Assembly (NCBI GenBank): GCA_964463485.1 | Contig: CAYXDO010000010.1 | Location: forward strand, 34,105-98,104 | Direction of reading: 5' to 3' | DNA length: 64,000 nt | Source of the DNA: an uncultured Myxococcales bacterium | Lineage (GTDB): Bacteria; Myxococcota; Kuafuiibacteriia; Kuafuiibacteriales; Kuafuiibacteriaceae | Translations under genes and position numbers: made by a program | Notes under the pieces: generated by a model | What the model was told of the DNA's origin: nothing | The model's database searches: none | The model's input: the letters and a program-made list of their open reading frames with translations, nothing else | Shown: positions 44,127 to 49,051 of the stretch, piece by piece | Numbering within the stretch: position 1 is the stretch's first letter | How the letters are laid out: the number at the start of each line of letters is the position of its first letter

Positions 44127-44666
44127 TCATTGCGGTTCGAACCGTTCATCCAGAGTCGCCAAGATCCAATCGAGAGCCTCCCATGGAGTGAGTGAGGGAA
44201 GCGGCACGCGCGGGTCCAAGAGTGGTTTCGCGGCTGGATTTGCGCCGATGTGACAGTGCAGCAGTGGGTGTCCACAGGGCCCTTGCCCGCTTTGGGCTTC
44301 CGTCAGGTCGATGCGCGCAAACCAGCCCTCGGCCACGATTGCGACCACGAACGAAAGAATCGAGGGTCCACGAGTGTCGTAGGTCGCCCGAAACCCAAGT
44401 AGGCCGTGCGGAAGCCGCCCGAGATCGGTGAGACGGATGCAGCGATGGCCATCATGAACCTCGTCAGCCGACTCTGCAACATACACCTCCCGTCGGGATC
44501 CGCTTCGTTTCTCTGAGATCCACCACGGAGCGCGCTCGTGACAGACCTTCGCGCGACTCAGCTTCGCGACTCGCGCACGAAGTTCGTCACGCAGATTGTC
44601 CTTCGGAACACAACGTCCATGGTTCACCTCGTCGGCCAGCGAGCGCCACCTGGATGCCGGACTCAA
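44127..44666 (-). CDS. Cys/His-rich hypothetical protein (third gene of the STAND-like operon)
   Basis: 179 aa. Clusters C19, C41-H43, H68/H71/C74, and C146-H148...H152-C153-H154 (CGHPLLHCH) suggest metal binding. 4-nt overlap with the upstream gene. Confidence 0.55.
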   Translation of the reverse strand: MSPASRWRSLADEVNHGRCVPKDNLRDELRARVAKLSRAKVCHERAPWWISEKRSGSRREVYVAESADEVHDGHRCIRLTDLGRLPHGLLGFRATYDTRGPSILSFVVAIVAEGWFARIDLTEAQSGQGPCGHPLLHCHIGANPAAKPLLDPRVPLPSLTPWEALDWILATLDERFEPQ

Positions 44667-45187
44667 GACCGGGACTCCAGGAGTAAGGCGTCATTCGCAA
44701 TCCACGAGTTCGCCAGAGTGTCCTCCAAAAGACCCGACCGCCACTCGGTCAGCCACTCCTCCGGGGATTTTCTGTGGATCTCGGAGAATCGTCTACGCTC
44801 GGACTCGATGTCCACGGTACCTTCGCCTCCGAAGTCGAGTCCTCGAATCCAACTCGCCAGAGCGGGTACGCCGCTCAGCGCGCGCTGACCTTCTCCTTCG
44901 TCTAGTAGGAAGAGAAACACCGGCACGGTCCGGTTCTGAAGCGAGTCCCGTACCCGCTCGAGGGCTTTGACCACTTCGGCCTCTCGCTCGGTGATGATTG
45001 CGAGCATCTCGTGCGGATGCGCAAGGACGTCATCGACGTCGGTCACGGTTGTCATGGGCCGCGCCGCGAGCGCGGCGATCTCGGACACTGCGACGTCTCG
45101 TTCTGAAAGAGATCGATACAGGACGACGGCAATAGGGGCTTTGCTCCAGAGCGCATGGAACAAGGCCGATTCGAAAGTTCGGCTCAA
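44663..45187 (-). CDS. Hypothetical protein (second gene of the STAND-like operon)
   Basis: 174 aa. No recognisable motif. 4-nt overlaps on both sides. Confidence 0.55.
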   Translation of the reverse strand: MSRTFESALFHALWSKAPIAVVLYRSLSERDVAVSEIAALAARPMTTVTDVDDVLAHPHEMLAIITEREAEVVKALERVRDSLQNRTVPVFLFLLDEGEGQRALSGVPALASWIRGLDFGGEGTVDIESERRRFSEIHRKSPEEWLTEWRSGLLEDTLANSWIANDALLLESRS

Positions 45188-46194
45188 GATGGCCTTCCGG
45201 AGAGGAGCGGGTGTAACACGGGCTGAGCTGAGCCCGAGTACTCGAGAAGAATGCCGTGAGTCAGGAATCGCACTTGCTGGTCCTCAGTCATGGGAGGGGC
45301 CGGGCGCAGGTGACGGTCAATTCCAAGCGCGAGAGCATCCCTGTCTTGCTGACTCAGCAGTCGATGAAAGCTTCGGGCGTGGTCTTGCACGGCGGACACC
45401 GCGTCCTCGAAATCCGGAAAATCATCGCCTCGGAGGGCTGCAGCGGCGGATGCGTCCATGAGGATCTGCAGAAAAAGTCGAGGCACCCCGCCGCTGTGTC
45501 CGGAGCAGAGGTCGACGACCTCGCCGAAACGACCTTCGAAACTCTCGAGACCCAATCGAGATCGGACGATCTCTCGAAAGAAGCTCCGGCCGGGCTCCGA
45601 TTGAGTTGGAATCGCGTGCAAGAGAAACAGCCGCAGGTGAGCCAAGACATCGAAAGCGGTCGACCCGGTCACGAGGCTCGGAGGTAGGATGAAAGCGACC
45701 TGGACCTCTGGAAAAAGCTCGAGAATCCTCTGAATCACCATCCGGGCCGCATCGATGGGTGCGCGCTCCAACCCATCCAGCAGGAGAACGACTCGGAGGT
45801 GCCGGGCTCGCAACTTATTGAATGCGAGCCTGGCCAAGTCGGTCGGAGGTCGAGATCCGGCCCGTCCCACGGACGCGGGCATGGCCTTGGAAGTGCGGCC
45901 AAGATGCTCCACACATTGAGTGAGGACCTGGTCGAGGGGCTCGTTCCAGTCCCGACATTCGAGAGGAACATAGACTGGGGCGAACTCATCCAGAGCCGAC
46001 AGCGCGGTAGTCGCACGAATCAATTCGGTCGTCTTGCCAATGCCAGCGGGACCGGCAACTGCGAAGGAGCGCCCCGGGCTCGCGTGCACGAGGCTCGCGA
46101 GACGCTCACCACCGTCCTCCGGCCGCCGGATGTACGCGTCGTCTCGCGGCGCGACGGGACGATATGGCGCGAGTCGCTCCCAAGGGATCGGCAC
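45184..46194 (-). CDS. Minimal NB-ARC/STAND-like P-loop NTPase (NBD-HD-WHD only, no sensor repeats)
   Basis: Walker A FAVAGPAGIGKTTEL (compare NB-ARC GMGGIGKTTLA). Walker B RVVLLLDGLE. GLPL-like motif CSGHSGGVPRLFLQIL (compare CGGLPLA). Possible MHD-like VQDHAR. Only 336 aa. Confidence 0.65.
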   Translation of the reverse strand: MPIPWERLAPYRPVAPRDDAYIRRPEDGGERLASLVHASPGRSFAVAGPAGIGKTTELIRATTALSALDEFAPVYVPLECRDWNEPLDQVLTQCVEHLGRTSKAMPASVGRAGSRPPTDLARLAFNKLRARHLRVVLLLDGLERAPIDAARMVIQRILELFPEVQVAFILPPSLVTGSTAFDVLAHLRLFLLHAIPTQSEPGRSFFREIVRSRLGLESFEGRFGEVVDLCSGHSGGVPRLFLQILMDASAAAALRGDDFPDFEDAVSAVQDHARSFHRLLSQQDRDALALGIDRHLRPAPPMTEDQQVRFLTHGILLEYSGSAQPVLHPLLSGRPS

Positions 46195-46646
46195 CGCCCG
46201 ATTATAGCCGGCCGTTGGCGACCTTGCAGACGATTCGCAGGCGACAATCGCGCACTCTTGCGATTACGTACGTTGGCCGAAGACCGCGCCCAGCTCGGCG
46301 GCCCGCACAGATCCGGCCCCTACACTCGCCGCGAGGGACTGAGCACGAAAGGCTTGGGAGAATCGGCGCGGGTGATGGACGATGGCTAGCCTGGAGCTCG
46401 CGCTGGTCACCATCTCCCGCTTCGTCTCGACCTGGGTGCCTGGAGCCGCCTCGGCCTTGACTGATTCCGCGACGGCGGCGGACGAAGAGCTCGAAATCGG
46501 TCGAAAGCCGGTCACCTGCATGAACGGCTTCTTCGCAATCCTCGGGCCAGGGCTCGAGACTCACGAGAACACGGCGCCGCGTCGCCTGCAGGCGACACCG
46601 GCAGTCCATTTCGTTCGCTCGAGGAAACGGGGACAACCATGTCGAG

Positions 46647-46988
46647 TCACATCCCCGGGATCGGCAGGTACTCCAAAACTTCGATCGTGAATCCGGGCAT
46701 CATGAGGTGCGGGTGACCGTCGAGGTGCTTCTTCACCGCTCCCATCGACTCGGCCTGCAGCACCGAATATCCGCCGATGAACCCAGTACCGGTCGGAGTC
46801 GACCCGCCCACCGTAACCGACTCTCCGAGCGGCGATCCGAGATCGACGATCGCGCTTCCAGCCCTACCGGCCCAAGCCATCCAAGCTTCCATGCCGGCCT
46901 TGGCATGCTCCGGCGTGGAGTTGGCCATCTGCTGAGCGCCGGAAATCGGTGATCGGTAGAGCACGAGGAACTTCTTCATGGCTGCCAA
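46647..46988 (-). CDS. YciI-like (YCII-related) small protein
   Basis: 113 aa. ...AWMAWAGRAG...GGYSVLQAESMGAVKKHLDGHPHL, typical of the YciI/Dabb fold. Confidence 0.65.
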   Translation of the reverse strand: MAAMKKFLVLYRSPISGAQQMANSTPEHAKAGMEAWMAWAGRAGSAIVDLGSPLGESVTVGGSTPTGTGFIGGYSVLQAESMGAVKKHLDGHPHLMMPGFTIEVLEYLPIPGM

Positions 46989-47197: not shown

Positions 47198-49051
47198 GTG
47201 GAGCGTGCGATGAGATTGTCAAAAGCGATGACGCTGAGCTTGGTGCTGTCGGCCTGCGGAGGTGAGTCTGACAAGCCGAAGCTCGAAGCGGGCGATGAGT
47301 TGGAGCAGACTGAGTTCGCCGTGGAGCGTTCGGGGTCTTTCACCGAGCTCCAGAGTCTCGAGAGCGCGCACCCCTACGCCGACGACCACGTTCAGGCATG
47401 GGAGGTTCGGGGGAGCGCCGACACGACCAAAATGCGCGTCGTGCTGGACCGATTCGAGCTCGAGGAAGGGTACGATGTGTTGGTCGTGTCGAATGGCGCG
47501 ACGCGCACGACACTCACCGGGTTGAAGACGGGCCGCGAGGTCGAGCTCGACGGGAACGTCTTGAAGCTCGAGCTTCGCACCGACGGCTCGATCACCAAGT
47601 GGGGATTCAGGCTGAAAATCCTCGAGGCAAAGCCGTGTGTGTGCCCGATGGTGTTCCAGCCAGTCTGCGGAGCGGACGGACGACAATATAGCAATGGGTG
47701 CGCGGCGTCTTGTGCAGGCGCCACGATCGACTACGCGGGCCCGTGTCGCGGCGACTGGTTCCGCGTCGATCGCGGGATCGCGTCGCTTCATCCCTATGCC
47801 AACGACACCGACTTCGAGTGGGAAGTCGGCGAGGGCGGAGCGACTCGGATGAGGCTGCACTTCACGTCGATCGACCTCGAGCGAGGCTACGACAAGCTCG
47901 AGGTCCGCGACGCACAAGGCCGGGTCGTCGTCGAGTACACGGGCAAGCAAGCCGATGTGACCACGCCGGCGATCTCCGGGAGCCTGGCCAAAATTCGGCT
48001 CGTCACGGACTCATCGGTGACGAAGTACGGCTTCGCGATGGATTTTTACGAGGTCGTGGGTGGGTGCGCCTCGGCAGCCGACTGCGGCCCGGGCCAGACC
48101 TGTTTGCAGCCGCAGTGTATTCGAGCGCCGTGCTTTTCGATGTGCGTGGCTGACCAGCCCGTCATTCAGGACGTCAGCGTCGCCGACCTCCTGACAAACG
48201 GCGCGGCATACTCGGGCAGAGTCGTGCGAGTCTCCGCGGAGCCGACCGCGCGGAGCCCGGTCTGCACTCGGATCGCTTGCTCACCCTCCAACCCATGCTG
48301 CAACCGATGCAGCTCGAGCTTCTCGATCGGGGAGGAGATCATGCTCACCACGCCCGGCGGTGAGCCGATGGGTTGCTCCGGAAACGAGTGCACGGTGACC
48401 GCGGCCTGCGAGCCGTTCGCCGCCCGCGAGAACGGGCCCTATGAGTTGACCGGACGGTTCGAGCTCGACGCGAGCGGTGGGCGCAGGTTGTACCTCGACT
48501 CGTTCCGCGCGGCGGCGTGTCACACGACCGGATGCAGCGGCCAGGTTTGTGCCAACAGCGACCGGATCACGACCTGCGAGTTCCGAGATGAGTACATGTG
48601 TTATCGCTCGGCCTCCTGCGAGCCCCAGACGGACGGGCACTGCGGCTTCACGCCCACCCCGACGCTCGATCAATGCTTGGCCGGCGGGCGAGACTTCGCG
48701 GTTCAGGCGGTGGACACGCCGATCACCATCCCCGACGCCGACCCCACGGGAATTCGAAGTATCATCTCGGTTCCCGACCGCGGACCGGCCGGTGTGGTAC
48801 GGGTGAGCGCGGAGCTCCGTCACAGCTACCGAGGCGACCTGCGCGTCGTACTCACGGCGCCAGATGGAACCGAGGTAGTCCTGCACGAGCGTCAGGGCGG
48901 ATCGAACGACGATCTGGTGATCGTGGACCGCGTCCTCGATGGGTTTACAGGTCGGCCAACCGCGGGCAATTGGACTCTCAAGGTGGCCGACCTGGATCGC
49001 GTCGACACGGGCACGCTGACTTCATTCGGACTGGTCTTCGCCGCCCGCTGA
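47198..49051 (+). CDS. Lipoprotein with two CUB-like domains, a Kazal-type inhibitor domain, a Cys-rich module and a C-terminal proprotein-convertase P-domain
   Basis: Lipobox LVLSACGG. CUB-like HPYADDHVQAWEV...KWGFRLKI and HPYANDTDFEWEV...KYGFAMDFYEV. Kazal CVCPMVFQPVCGADGRQYSNGCAASCAGATIDYAGPC. P-domain SYRGDLRVVLTAPDGTEVVL...AGNWTLKVADL. Confidence 0.75.
   Translation: MERAMRLSKAMTLSLVLSACGGESDKPKLEAGDELEQTEFAVERSGSFTELQSLESAHPYADDHVQAWEVRGSADTTKMRVVLDRFELEEGYDVLVVSNGATRTTLTGLKTGREVELDGNVLKLELRTDGSITKWGFRLKILEAKPCVCPMVFQPVCGADGRQYSNGCAASCAGATIDYAGPCRGDWFRVDRGIASLHPYANDTDFEWEVGEGGATRMRLHFTSIDLERGYDKLEVRDAQGRVVVEYTGKQADVTTPAISGSLAKIRLVTDSSVTKYGFAMDFYEVVGGCASAADCGPGQTCLQPQCIRAPCFSMCVADQPVIQDVSVADLLTNGAAYSGRVVRVSAEPTARSPVCTRIACSPSNPCCNRCSSSFSIGEEIMLTTPGGEPMGCSGNECTVTAACEPFAARENGPYELTGRFELDASGGRRLYLDSFRAAACHTTGCSGQVCANSDRITTCEFRDEYMCYRSASCEPQTDGHCGFTPTPTLDQCLAGGRDFAVQAVDTPITIPDADPTGIRSIISVPDRGPAGVVRVSAELRHSYRGDLRVVLTAPDGTEVVLHERQGGSNDDLVIVDRVLDGFTGRPTAGNWTLKVADLDRVDTGTLTSFGLVFAAR

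Follow-up and report, generated by a model that had tools for sequence, protein, structure and literature searches.

In published descriptions, an immune switch of the STAND/NLR type is one large protein that unites sensor, switch and effector. STAND NTPases (NACHT, AAA_16, nSTAND, AP-ATPase; Avs, bNACHT) have a P-loop nucleotide-binding domain (NBD), a GxP-type helical lid and a winged helix, and all three are present in the product of gene A, the first of three adjacent genes (A, B and C, hereafter the trio) analysed here. The likeness extends to a NACHT-like hhhhDGLE Walker B and to sub-threshold to moderate matches to the AAA_16, NACHT, nSTAND_NTPase5 and NPHP3_N profiles. However, A is a protein of 336 aa without a C-terminal sensor or an N-terminal effector, it has no conserved MHD-type histidine at the proposed site, and two orphan genes are its obligate companions.

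Several other described systems resemble the trio in part. The vWA-MoxR-VMAP and iSTAND systems of multicellular bacteria use MoxR AAA+ and vWA proteins together with a wide range of exchangeable effector domains (Kaur et al., eLife 2020, PMC7159879). Like the trio, these NTP-dependent ternary conflict systems have three components around an NTPase, and they are enriched in deltaproteobacteria/myxobacteria and further multicellular bacteria. In the trio, however, vWA, MoxR, VMAP and effector-associated domains are all absent and the architecture hardly varies. BREX and MANTIS each couple a wHTH-bearing AAA+ protein to a small co-regulator, and the AAA+ domain of BrxB is inactive (bioRxiv 10.64898/2026.09.23.753747). 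In contrast to the BrxC-BrxB and MtsA-MtsB pairs, the trio is not accompanied by PglX, PglZ, MtsC or MtsD genes, the PADLOC BREX and Gao_RL models are unmatched, and no similarity between B and BrxB/DUF1788 was detected. BrxC and MtsA are also much larger than A and have long C-terminal tails. The archaeal stand-alone ATPases PAB2304 and SSO1545 (Pfam ATPase_2) are 10-13% identical to A and differ from it in taxonomic range, and we know of no B/C-type partners of the ATPase_2 family. Finally, Cdc6/Orc1 and TnsC/MuB lack profile similarity to A, whose winged helix is acidic, and the trio has no origin, transposase or TniQ context; for TnsC, TniB, IstB and MuB, neither a profile match nor linkage to a transposase was found.

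No description of the A-B-C trio was found in the literature, and it is probably an accessory conflict or signalling module that has not been described before. We regard it as a previously unseen variant of NTPase-switch systems whose mechanism we infer. Such a trio would be a natural "disassembled" STAND/NLR, in which a switch reduced to its core has two small orphan proteins as permanent partners, and would be useful for learning how triggering and signal passing work. If the trio is truly a split NLR, then the sensor, switch and effector of an NLR can exist as separate, co-evolving genes. B and C additionally define two protein families that none of the libraries searched annotates. The module is rare and so far almost restricted to myxobacteria, which limits its practical value.

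Organization of the three-gene locus

The window, that is, the whole stretch of 64,000 nucleotides that was analysed, contains the three tightly packed ORFs on its minus strand (Table 1). The preliminary description of this DNA had reported them as three co-translated ORFs of 336, 174 and 179 aa; the ORFs and both 4-nt overlaps were verified, and the A-B-C order recurs at other loci. The overlaps had been called ATGA-type, which requires correction, as both junctions read TTGA. Elsewhere, the A/B junction is a 4-8 nt overlap or a gap of a few to ~30 nt, the 4-nt B/C overlap with a TTG start is repeated in loci L002-L006 and L024, and C starts with TTG or GTG at 8 of 16 loci. Later starts are not feasible, because N-terminal residues are conserved (W5, L8 and P10 in A; W7 in C). 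The suggestion that B and C are unannotated in the source record was rejected, since independent public gene calls carry both B (MBI4818210.1) and C with identical boundaries. The trio is a genuine translationally coupled unit.

Table 1. Features of the A-B-C locus, in window coordinates
Feature	Position	Strand	Description
Gene A	45184..46194	-	336 aa, GTG start; sensor-less AAA+/STAND-like ATPase: NBD, helical lid and winged helix
Gene B	44663..45187	-	174 aa, TTG start; acidic orphan protein
Gene C	44127..44666	-	179 aa, TTG start; orphan protein with invariant Cys/His cluster
A/B junction	45184..45187	-	4-nt overlap TTGA: B start TTG over A stop TGA (read tcTTGAg)
B/C junction	44663..44666	-	4-nt overlap TTGA: C start TTG over B stop TGA (read tcTTGAg)
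Walker A / P-loop	46021..46053	-	GPAGIGKTTEL, A residues 48-58
Hypervariable helix-loop-helix insert	45820..45954	-	A residues 81-125; separates strand 2 from the Walker B strand
Walker B	45766..45792	-	VVLLLDGLE, A residues 135-143; type hhhhDGLE(K/R)
Lid motif	45451..45507	-	(C/A)xxxSGGxPRxFLQLLxDA, A residues 230-248; GxP-type motif and near-invariant Arg239
Winged-helix motif	45241..45270	-	RxLxHGLLLE, A residues 309-318
Cys/His cluster	44244..44288	-	GxGxCGHPLLHCHxG, C residues 127-141; CGHPLLHCH = 131-139
Possible -10 box	46201..46206	-	Perfect TATAAT, 6 nt upstream of the A GTG start
Gap upstream of A	46195..46646	.	452 nt

It is possible that the TATAAT hexamer upstream of A is the -10 box of a leaderless transcript. 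A consensus promoter scan did not call it because its -35 hexamer matches at only 3 of 6 positions, and the hexamer is not kept at the other trio loci compared; an AGAGG- or AGGAG-like motif lies upstream instead in the Archangium loci and in L009, L012 and L014. The upstream gap, previously given as 450 nt, has no Rfam match, its longest ORF has no Pfam match, its codon-phase signal is only weak, and the corresponding gaps at other loci are much shorter. A fourth gene within it was considered and rejected, as it lacks a coding signal, a Pfam match and conservation. As for the flanking genes, the earlier labels of a TPR membrane protein and YciI are weak: the TPR matches of the 408-aa neighbour and the YCII match of the 113-aa neighbour (E 0.008) are all sub-threshold.

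The ATPase encoded by gene A

All sequence motifs quoted in the preliminary description were recovered from the translations of A and C. Among 78 members of the A family, G48, G51, G53, K54 and E57 of Walker A are invariant. In Walker B, 77 of the 78 have D140, 77 have G141, and position 143 is Glu in 67 and Asp in 11; we take this motif to resemble the NACHT-type DGhDE Walker B, and the Pfam NACHT match on A spans residues 44-147. The GxP-type lid motif is similarly well kept (S234 in 76/78, G236 in 78/78, P238 in 63/78, R239 in 76/78 and L242 in 76/78) and falls in model helices 223-234 and 238-254; the sequence noted earlier as GLPL-like, CSGHSGGVPRLFL, corresponds to residues 230-242. Within the winged-helix motif, R309 is invariant and H313, G314 and E318 are found in 55, 71 and 71 of the 78 members, respectively, and the motif might act as a nucleotide-sensing, MHD-equivalent element. 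A different MHD-like candidate proposed earlier, QDH at residues 270-272, is not conserved (His272 in 25/78, Gln in 35/78). The insert at residues 81-125 has the highest column entropy, is ~20-25 residues longer in most relatives, and is the lowest-pLDDT stretch within the body of the AlphaFold (AF2) model.

In that model (pLDDT 93.9), the NBD, lid and winged helix wholly cover A, which fits the initial proposal of a minimal P-loop ATPase without sensor repeats or an effector domain. Nearly all of the 150 listed relatives are 320-400 aa long. The P-loop core with Walker A and B and the NBD, GxP lid and winged-helix order that characterize STAND proteins are all present, and the fused sensor repeats and/or effector domain are absent. 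Pfam profiles point in the same direction. For the A of the window, AAA_16 scored 25.5 bits (cutoff 32.6) and NACHT 20.6 bits (cutoff 26.7), and every match fell below its gathering score; across the 78 family members, AAA_16 matched 75 (E<=0.01; best E 9e-12), nSTAND_NTPase5 30, NACHT 22 and NPHP3_N 19, and ATPase_2 gave weak matches in 10. The NB-ARC membership originally assigned to A is not upheld, since PF00931 matched neither the window protein nor any of the 78 relatives. The preliminary description had also named housekeeping AAA families as a possible identity that would speak against its proposal; such an identity was not borne out, as the family matches STAND models and none of the TniB, IstB, DnaA and Cdc6 models. 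Profile searches of PDB sequences with A, B and C returned P-loop-level or chance matches only. The sequence of A leans towards the STAND families AAA_16, NACHT and nSTAND5, and these affinities, together with the invariant Walker A and B motifs, the conserved lid and winged-helix motifs and the high pLDDT, suggest that A may function as a switch.

Structure comparison of the predicted model is less selective: TnsC, Cdc6/Orc1 and STAND proteins are all equally good matches to the fold. A could be a DNA-associated loader comparable to Cdc6/Orc1, TnsC/MuB or BrxC/MtsA, assembling on DNA with ATP and recruiting or activating B, C or a neighbouring enzyme, with B in the place of BrxB/MtsB. The pairing of an AAA+/wHTH protein with a small co-regulator in BREX and MANTIS is a precedent, two distant relatives carry an N-terminal methyltransferase-like domain, and at L019 a DUF7008-wHTH gene precedes the trio, its reading frame running into the start of A; DUF7008 occurs as a domain in PglX-type methyltransferases. 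However, the winged helix of A is acidic (pI 5.3; whole protein ~6), genes for a transposase, methyltransferase, PglZ or nuclease are absent around the trio in the window and at most loci, and the family repeatedly matches STAND models rather than TniB, IstB, Cdc6 or DnaA. Moreover, B resembles neither A nor any Pfam family, DUF1788/BrxB included, and both methyltransferase-fused relatives are without B and C. Such a loader is considered quite improbable. Two further candidates were rejected: that the trio is part of a transposon, as prompted by the TnsC fold match (no transposase, terminal repeats, or TniB or IstB profile match), and that B represents the ATPase domain of A in degenerate form (hhalign of B against A, probability 0.6%).

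Proteins B and C

B and C had been described as lacking recognizable domains, and both are indeed orphan families, with no relative in Pfam, PADLOC, NCBIfam, PHROGs or the PDB. In B, a sequence pattern of alternating beta and alpha elements precedes a conserved segment at the C-terminus, F..G..PE.WL. Its 17 orthologues each lie directly after A and are uniformly acidic (pI 4.2-5.0 in 17 of 17), and C is neutral to basic. The model of C, built from a 6-sequence alignment, predicts a beta meander flanked by two helices on its N-terminal side and one on its C-terminal side. The dense Cys/His cluster noted earlier in C is borne out by conservation: 21 sequences all share G127, G129, C131, H133, H137, H139 and G141, which makes C-x-H-x3-H-x-H an invariant core, C138 is nearly invariant, and further Cys residues are conserved beyond it. 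The cluster, which sits in the least confident part of the model, may bind metal.

The character of the two small genes raises the possibility of a tripartite toxin-antitoxin-like module, a special case of a conflict module, in which toxin C and its acidic antitoxin B would form a pair, with A as their ATP-dependent regulator or chaperone. The 4-nt overlap of B and C, the contrast of a uniformly acidic B with a neutral to basic C, the frequent weak start codons of C, a PemK toxin gene adjoining the trio in L017 and the existence of decayed copies are all compatible with this. On the other hand, no toxin or antitoxin family was recognized in B or C, B bears no signature of a DNA-binding domain, 174-179 aa is large for type II pairs, and no plasmid copies of the trio were found. 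We consider this version very unlikely.

Distribution, genomic context and the conflict-module reading

The A-B-C order, with overlapping or abutting frames, was found in the window and in L002-L006, L008, L009, L011, L012, L014, L017-L020, L023 and L024 (at least 17 loci), and 7 of 10 loci found through A alone carry B and C directly downstream. Since this order persists at 25-40% identity between the loci compared, with dN/dS values well below 1 (0.07-0.29 for the trio; 0.23-0.29 for A and 0.07-0.10 for B and C), the trio is more than a chance arrangement, and each of its genes is under purifying selection. A evolves faster than its partners, with its variability concentrated in the insert. 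A, B and C diverge together, as their pairwise identity matrices are correlated (r 0.82-0.93, Mantel p<=0.0005). All named hosts, Archangium and Cystobacter fuscus (CYFUS_001269 operon) among them, belong to the Myxococcota. The exact C motif occurs in only 9 of 185,579 species genomes, all of them Myxococcota or unclassified delta-proteobacterial MAGs, and at E<=1e-10 the A family accounts for just 158 clusters in a set of 1.84 billion representatives. Word-index protein searches, run with A and with B and C joined, yielded next to nothing and missed the B and C of the window itself, although the collection contains both, and their silence was not counted. Several copies are decayed: L015/L016 contains a deletion remnant, C of L005 has an internal stop, A of L009 has a frameshift, and L010 is degraded.

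The genes flanking the trio vary between lineages, and its GC3 is 0.63-0.77 against 0.73-0.97 for its neighbours. Together with the sparse distribution and the decayed copies, these features argue for an accessory or mobile character. At L024 and L010, a Septu PtuA gene (best E 2e-115) and an HNH PtuB-like gene lie within ~5 kb of the trio, an adjacency seen at only 2 of ~14 independent loci. These Septu genes, the DUF7008-wHTH gene of L019, the PemK gene of L017 and the fusion of one relative, P0150, to an AAA_21/AAA_15 ABC ATPase were counted in favour of a conflict function. The fit of variable flanks, low GC3, Septu neighbours and decay with an accessory conflict module is nevertheless weak. 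Ordinary chromosomal genes, for example AsmA, GlnD, SbcCD, hydrolases and histidine kinases, make up most of the flanks, and the window is not a defence island, which counts against a conflict function, as does the failure to find relatives of the trio in viral contigs, phage records or plasmid records. The earlier statement that this architecture is not among familiar defence systems holds for PADLOC-DB v2.0.0, in which the trio is absent. In the window, A matched only GajB (E 0.018) and B and C had no match, and weak mad8 matches were obtained for 20 of 78 A-family members (best E 3.5e-5); the lack of any PADLOC model beyond such weak generic ATPase similarity likewise counts against conflict.

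The trio has a single syntenic location in four Archangium genomes, where purifying selection on it is strong, which fits a stable cellular function as well. The trio could be a non-conflict myxobacterial signalling or metal-homeostasis module, with C as a metal or redox sensor or metal handler, A as a gating NTPase and B as an adaptor; myxobacteria are rich in STAND/AAA_16 signalling proteins. The invariant Cys/His cluster with its additional conserved Cys residues and the mostly housekeeping neighbours agree with such a role, and at L020 the trio adjoins genes for a heavy-metal P-type ATPase, a CDF cation-efflux protein and a hemerythrin. However, metal-related neighbours occur at that locus only, and the very sparse distribution, atypical composition and several decayed copies would be unusual for a homeostatic function. 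Additionally, the metallochaperone NTPases known to us are G3E GTPases and not AAA+/STAND proteins. A metal or redox role is judged unlikely.

The reading we favour is that the trio is a self-contained, horizontally mobile NTPase-switch conflict module, acting in phage or mobile-element defence or in abortive infection; we hold this tentatively, at somewhat below an even chance. In such a conflict module, A would be a minimal STAND/ORC-type AAA+ ATPase acting as a nucleotide-gated switch, ADP-bound and closed at rest and becoming ATP-bound and oligomeric upon a trigger, for which the fast-evolving helical insert is a candidate contact surface. Because A has no sensor repeats or effector domain, its co-translated partners would supply the missing sensor and effector functions in trans. 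C would be the likeliest metal-dependent effector or ligand-binding sensor, the effector role being a guess because no nuclease, protease, NADase or pore-forming fold is recognizable in it. Acidic B would be the likeliest adaptor or inhibitor, either coupling C to A or restraining C. Oligomerization, sensing, killing and metal binding are all presumed activities of the trio. A narrower version, a largely myxobacterial "split NLR" anti-phage or abortive-infection system in which a bare switch is wired in trans to two families not seen before, with G-x-G-x-C-x-H-x3-H-C-H-x-G marking a metal-dependent effector or sensor fold in C, is doubtful. In favour of a conflict module, C often has a weak TTG or GTG start, which would be expected of a dosage-sensitive component.

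Conservation of the three-gene unit

Genes A (the ATPase), B and C, here called the trio, are a real unit. The three minus-strand open reading frames lie exactly where the preliminary description had placed them, and the boundaries of B and C are identical in public gene calls. The start codons are well supported, since no alternative ATG, GTG or TTG occurs upstream of conserved W5/L8/P10 of A or invariant W7 of C. The junctions, described earlier as ATGA overlaps, both read tcTTGAg, with a TTG start over a TGA stop (4 nt). Across loci, A and B overlap by 4-8 nt or are separated by a gap of a few to ~30 nt, B and C overlap by 1-14 nt, and the start codon of C is TTG or GTG in 8 of 16.

The A-B-C order of the proposed operon recurs beyond the window. 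Homologues of C contain an invariant Cys/His motif, and scanning this motif through species genomes and metagenomes yielded 12 loci; in every sufficiently long one, A, B and C are adjacent and in unchanged order (tblastn). Ten loci were found independently of the motif, via A-family proteins. B and C are directly downstream of A in seven of these (L014, L017, L018, L019, L020, L023 and L024), and the other three are all rearranged. The A family is discrete, with 279 representatives at E<=1e-3 and 158 at E<=1e-10 in an exhaustive HMMER search of 1.84 billion proteins, nearly all of them 320-400 aa long. A word-index search with a concatenated B+C query missed the window's own B and C, though these are in the collection, and its silence is thus not absence.

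Pairwise identity matrices of A, B and C are correlated (r 0.82-0.93, Mantel p<=0.0005), with close Archangium copies contributing to the signal. Among the Archangium loci, A has a dN/dS (Nei-Gojobori) of 0.23-0.29, against 0.07-0.10 in B and C. Several copies have decayed. For instance, the trio of locus L010, with a truncated B and only the final third of C detectable, looks degraded. At L015 and L016, a truncated A-family gene (293 aa) runs on in frame into a stretch sharing 54% identity with the 26 C-terminal residues of C, apparently the remnant of a deletion that took out the last part of A, the whole of B and the bulk of C. The gene that follows is a housekeeping RF3-type GTPase. In one Archangium MAG a stop codon interrupts C, and in another MAG A is frameshifted; each is due either to decay or to an assembly error.

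Some A-family proteins are extended. P0150 ends in a fused AAA_21/AAA_15 ABC ATPase, and P0099 has an N-terminal extension resembling that of its relative P0117, which has a weak methyltransferase match (Pfam); neither P0150 nor P0099 is accompanied by B or C. P0061, extended at its N-terminus by 300 unannotated residues, retains B and C.

Coordinates of the trio, its motifs and associated features
Feature	Source	Position	Strand	Detail
A	window	45184-46194	minus	336 aa, GTG start
B	window	44663-45187	minus	174 aa, TTG start
C	window	44127-44666	minus	179 aa, TTG start
GPAGIGKTTEL	A	residues 48-58
VVLLLDGLE	A	residues 135-143
CSGHSGGVPRLFL	A	residues 230-242
QDH	A	residues 270-272
CGHPLLHCH	C	residues 131-139
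TATAAT	window	46201-46206	minus
85-aa ORF	window	46264-46521	minus
Direct repeat	window	46170-46193, 46643-46666
617-aa protein	window	47198-49051	plus
C with stop codon	L005	5935-6504
A with frameshift	L009	2630-3708
Septu-like genes	L010	4140-6186, 10409-12186		PtuA, then HNH PtuB-like
Septu-like genes	L024	772-3518		PtuA, then HNH PtuB-like
Truncated A fused to C end	L015/L016	6001-6882
Three extra genes	L018	3116-4493
P0061	L020	7001-8956
P0150	L021	4629-6743
P0099	L022	1234-2808

Predicted properties of the three proteins

The motifs quoted in the preliminary description for A and C are all present in the translation, and the assignment of A can be refined. Window A has sub-threshold Pfam matches to AAA_16 (E 2e-5), NACHT (4e-4), AAA_22 and ATPase_2. 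Over 78 A-family members, matches were obtained to AAA_16 (75), AAA_22 (55), nSTAND_NTPase5 (30), NACHT (22), NPHP3_N (19) and ATPase_2 (10), and none to NB-ARC, TniB, IstB, Cdc6 or DnaA. The NB-ARC assignment is therefore not borne out. "STAND-like" is a fair label given the repeated AAA_16, nSTAND_NTPase5, NACHT and NPHP3_N matches, and the housekeeping identity that had been considered (TniB, IstB) finds no match in these members.

In the AlphaFold2 model of A, built from the family alignment (pLDDT 93.9, pTM 0.92), the nucleotide-binding domain has five strands and is followed by a helical lid (~200-254) and a module resembling a winged helix (~262-330). Walker A residues G48, G51, G53, K54 and E57 are invariant in the 78 members. 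The conserved Walker B is hhhhD140-G141-L-E143-(K/R), and hhhhDGLE-type patterns are typical of NACHT proteins. The lid motif, S234-G-G236-x-P238-R239-x-F-L242-Q-L-L-x-D-A, joins a GxP motif to an Arg that is almost invariant, and R309-x-L-x-H313-G-L-L-L-E318 is conserved in the winged helix. QDH, previously called MHD-like, is unconserved (His272 in 25/78 members, Gln in 35/78). Variability peaks in a helix-loop-helix insert (residues 81-125) between strand 2 and the Walker B strand, which has ~20-25 extra residues in most relatives. Together, sequence and model indicate that A is probably a STAND/ORC-type AAA+ protein without sensor or effector, upholding the earlier observation that sensor repeats and effector are missing.

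A role as a DNA-associated loader, comparable to BrxC-BrxB or MtsA-MtsB, would fit the fold matches of A (TnsC and Cdc6/Orc1, with STAND proteins matching equally well) and the logic set out in bioRxiv 10.64898/2026.09.23.753747. However, the charge of A speaks mildly against an initiator that binds DNA, the protein as a whole being near neutral and the winged helix acidic (pI 5.3). Partner enzymes are absent, and B lacks any similarity to BrxB; we regard a loader as unlikely.

As described earlier, B has no recognised domain: no relatives were found in Pfam, PADLOC, NCBIfam, PHROGs or PDB sequences, and it has no profile similarity to A. Over ~115 residues, hydrophobic strand-like segments alternate with amphipathic helix-like ones, ending in a conserved tail, D..F....G..PE.WL. 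In the family alignment (17 sequences), R80, G98, L110, F134, P142, W145 and A167 are invariant, no conserved residues look catalytic, and every member is acidic (pI 4.2-5.0, net charge ~-11).

Among 21 sequences of the C family, W7, G127, G129, C131, H133, H137, H139, G141 and R153 are invariant, and C138, C42, P155, P161 and W167 nearly so. The AF2 model of C, from 6 sequences (pLDDT 79.8), starts with two helices, continues as an antiparallel meander of eight strands and ends in a helix; confidence is lowest in the stretch around the Cys/His cluster. A Foldseek search of this model against the PDB gave nothing below E 0.1. This result and the invariant Cys/His residues suggest that C is an orphan protein and probably has a metal site, be it catalytic, structural or sensory, in agreement with the dense cluster and lack of a recognised domain reported earlier. 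The cluster, one neighbourhood with metal efflux (L020) and the stable synteny in Archangium would suit a non-conflict metal, redox or signalling module, which we consider doubtful, if not remote.

The best-supported reading, a tentative one, sees the trio as a conflict-system-type NTPase switch made of three proteins. A would gate the system through nucleotide state and oligomerisation, C could be a metal-dependent effector or ligand sensor, and the acidic B may be an adaptor or inhibitor; contact with the trigger might be made by the fast-evolving insert of A. A tripartite toxin-antitoxin variant seems quite improbable. In multicellular bacteria, the ternary NTPase conflict systems have MoxR and vWA proteins at their core (PMC7159879), and the trio falls outside that description. 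The earlier view that the architecture lies outside known systems is consistent with B and C being in no library searched, among them Pfam, PADLOC and NCBIfam. A literature search found no paper on this module. What appears new is the putative NTPase-switch module in split architecture, with B and C as two new protein families. Overall, the trio is robustly real, unannotated, rare and lineage-restricted, and its function is putative.

Hosts and genomic context

The named hosts are all Myxococcota (Archangium, Cystobacter fuscus, Polyangiales and Byssovorax), and the rest are unclassified delta-proteobacterial MAGs. Four Archangium genomes share a single syntenic insertion site, with an AsmA-family gene on one side and hydrolase genes on the other; outside Archangium, neighbours differ in every lineage. 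Most are ordinary chromosomal genes (SbcCD, GlnD, PAP2, Band_7/NfeD, histidine kinases). In the window and Archangium loci, GC3 of the trio (0.63-0.77) is below that of the flanks (0.73-0.97). No relatives were found in plasmid, phage or viral-contig collections. Taken together with the decay of several copies, these features make the trio resemble an accessory module that moves horizontally.

The link to defence genes is modest. PADLOC on 95 flanking genes gave strong Septu PtuA matches (best E 2e-115), from two unrelated loci, L010 and L024, in which Septu-like genes lie within ~5 kb of the trio. A DUF7008-wHTH gene overlaps the start of A at L019, and neighbours elsewhere include a PemK toxin (L017), a Uma2 nuclease-like gene (L008), a Macro-domain gene (L006) and an integrase (L023). 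The trio is not a clear defence-island resident.

At L018, three further small genes are tightly packed downstream of the trio, encoding a 189-aa protein that combines a zinc-ribbon-like, Cys-rich segment with a hydrophobic helix at the C-terminus, a Cys-rich, secreted-looking 172-aa protein, and an 83-aa protein with SDEGNPS repeats; none has a Pfam match or was seen in other loci. The window also encodes a 617-aa protein with CUB, Kazal-type inhibitor and proprotein-convertase P domains (Pfam E 1e-11 to 3e-19), a predicted mix that is eukaryote-like and unusual in bacteria. The TPR and YciI labels given earlier to flanking genes are weak, as matches exist and are sub-threshold (TPR, 408-aa protein; YCII, 113-aa protein).

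The gap upstream of A, described as ~450 nt, measures 452 nt; an Rfam search of it gave no match and its coding signal is not convincing. The 85-aa ORF within it has a mild codon-phase signal (GC3 0.74) and no counterpart seen among other loci, and may be a gene remnant. The perfect TATAAT, 6 nt upstream of A's start codon and with a -35 match (3/6) 17 nt further upstream, suggests a leaderless transcript of A in the window genome. It is absent from the other loci, several of which have an AGAGG- or AGGAG-like Shine-Dalgarno motif there. An imperfect 24-nt direct repeat (79% identity) flanks the gap, one copy coding for the first residues of A (MPIPWERL) and the other for the last ones of the YciI-like gene (LPIPGM*); the repeat may have arisen by chance or be left over from recombination.
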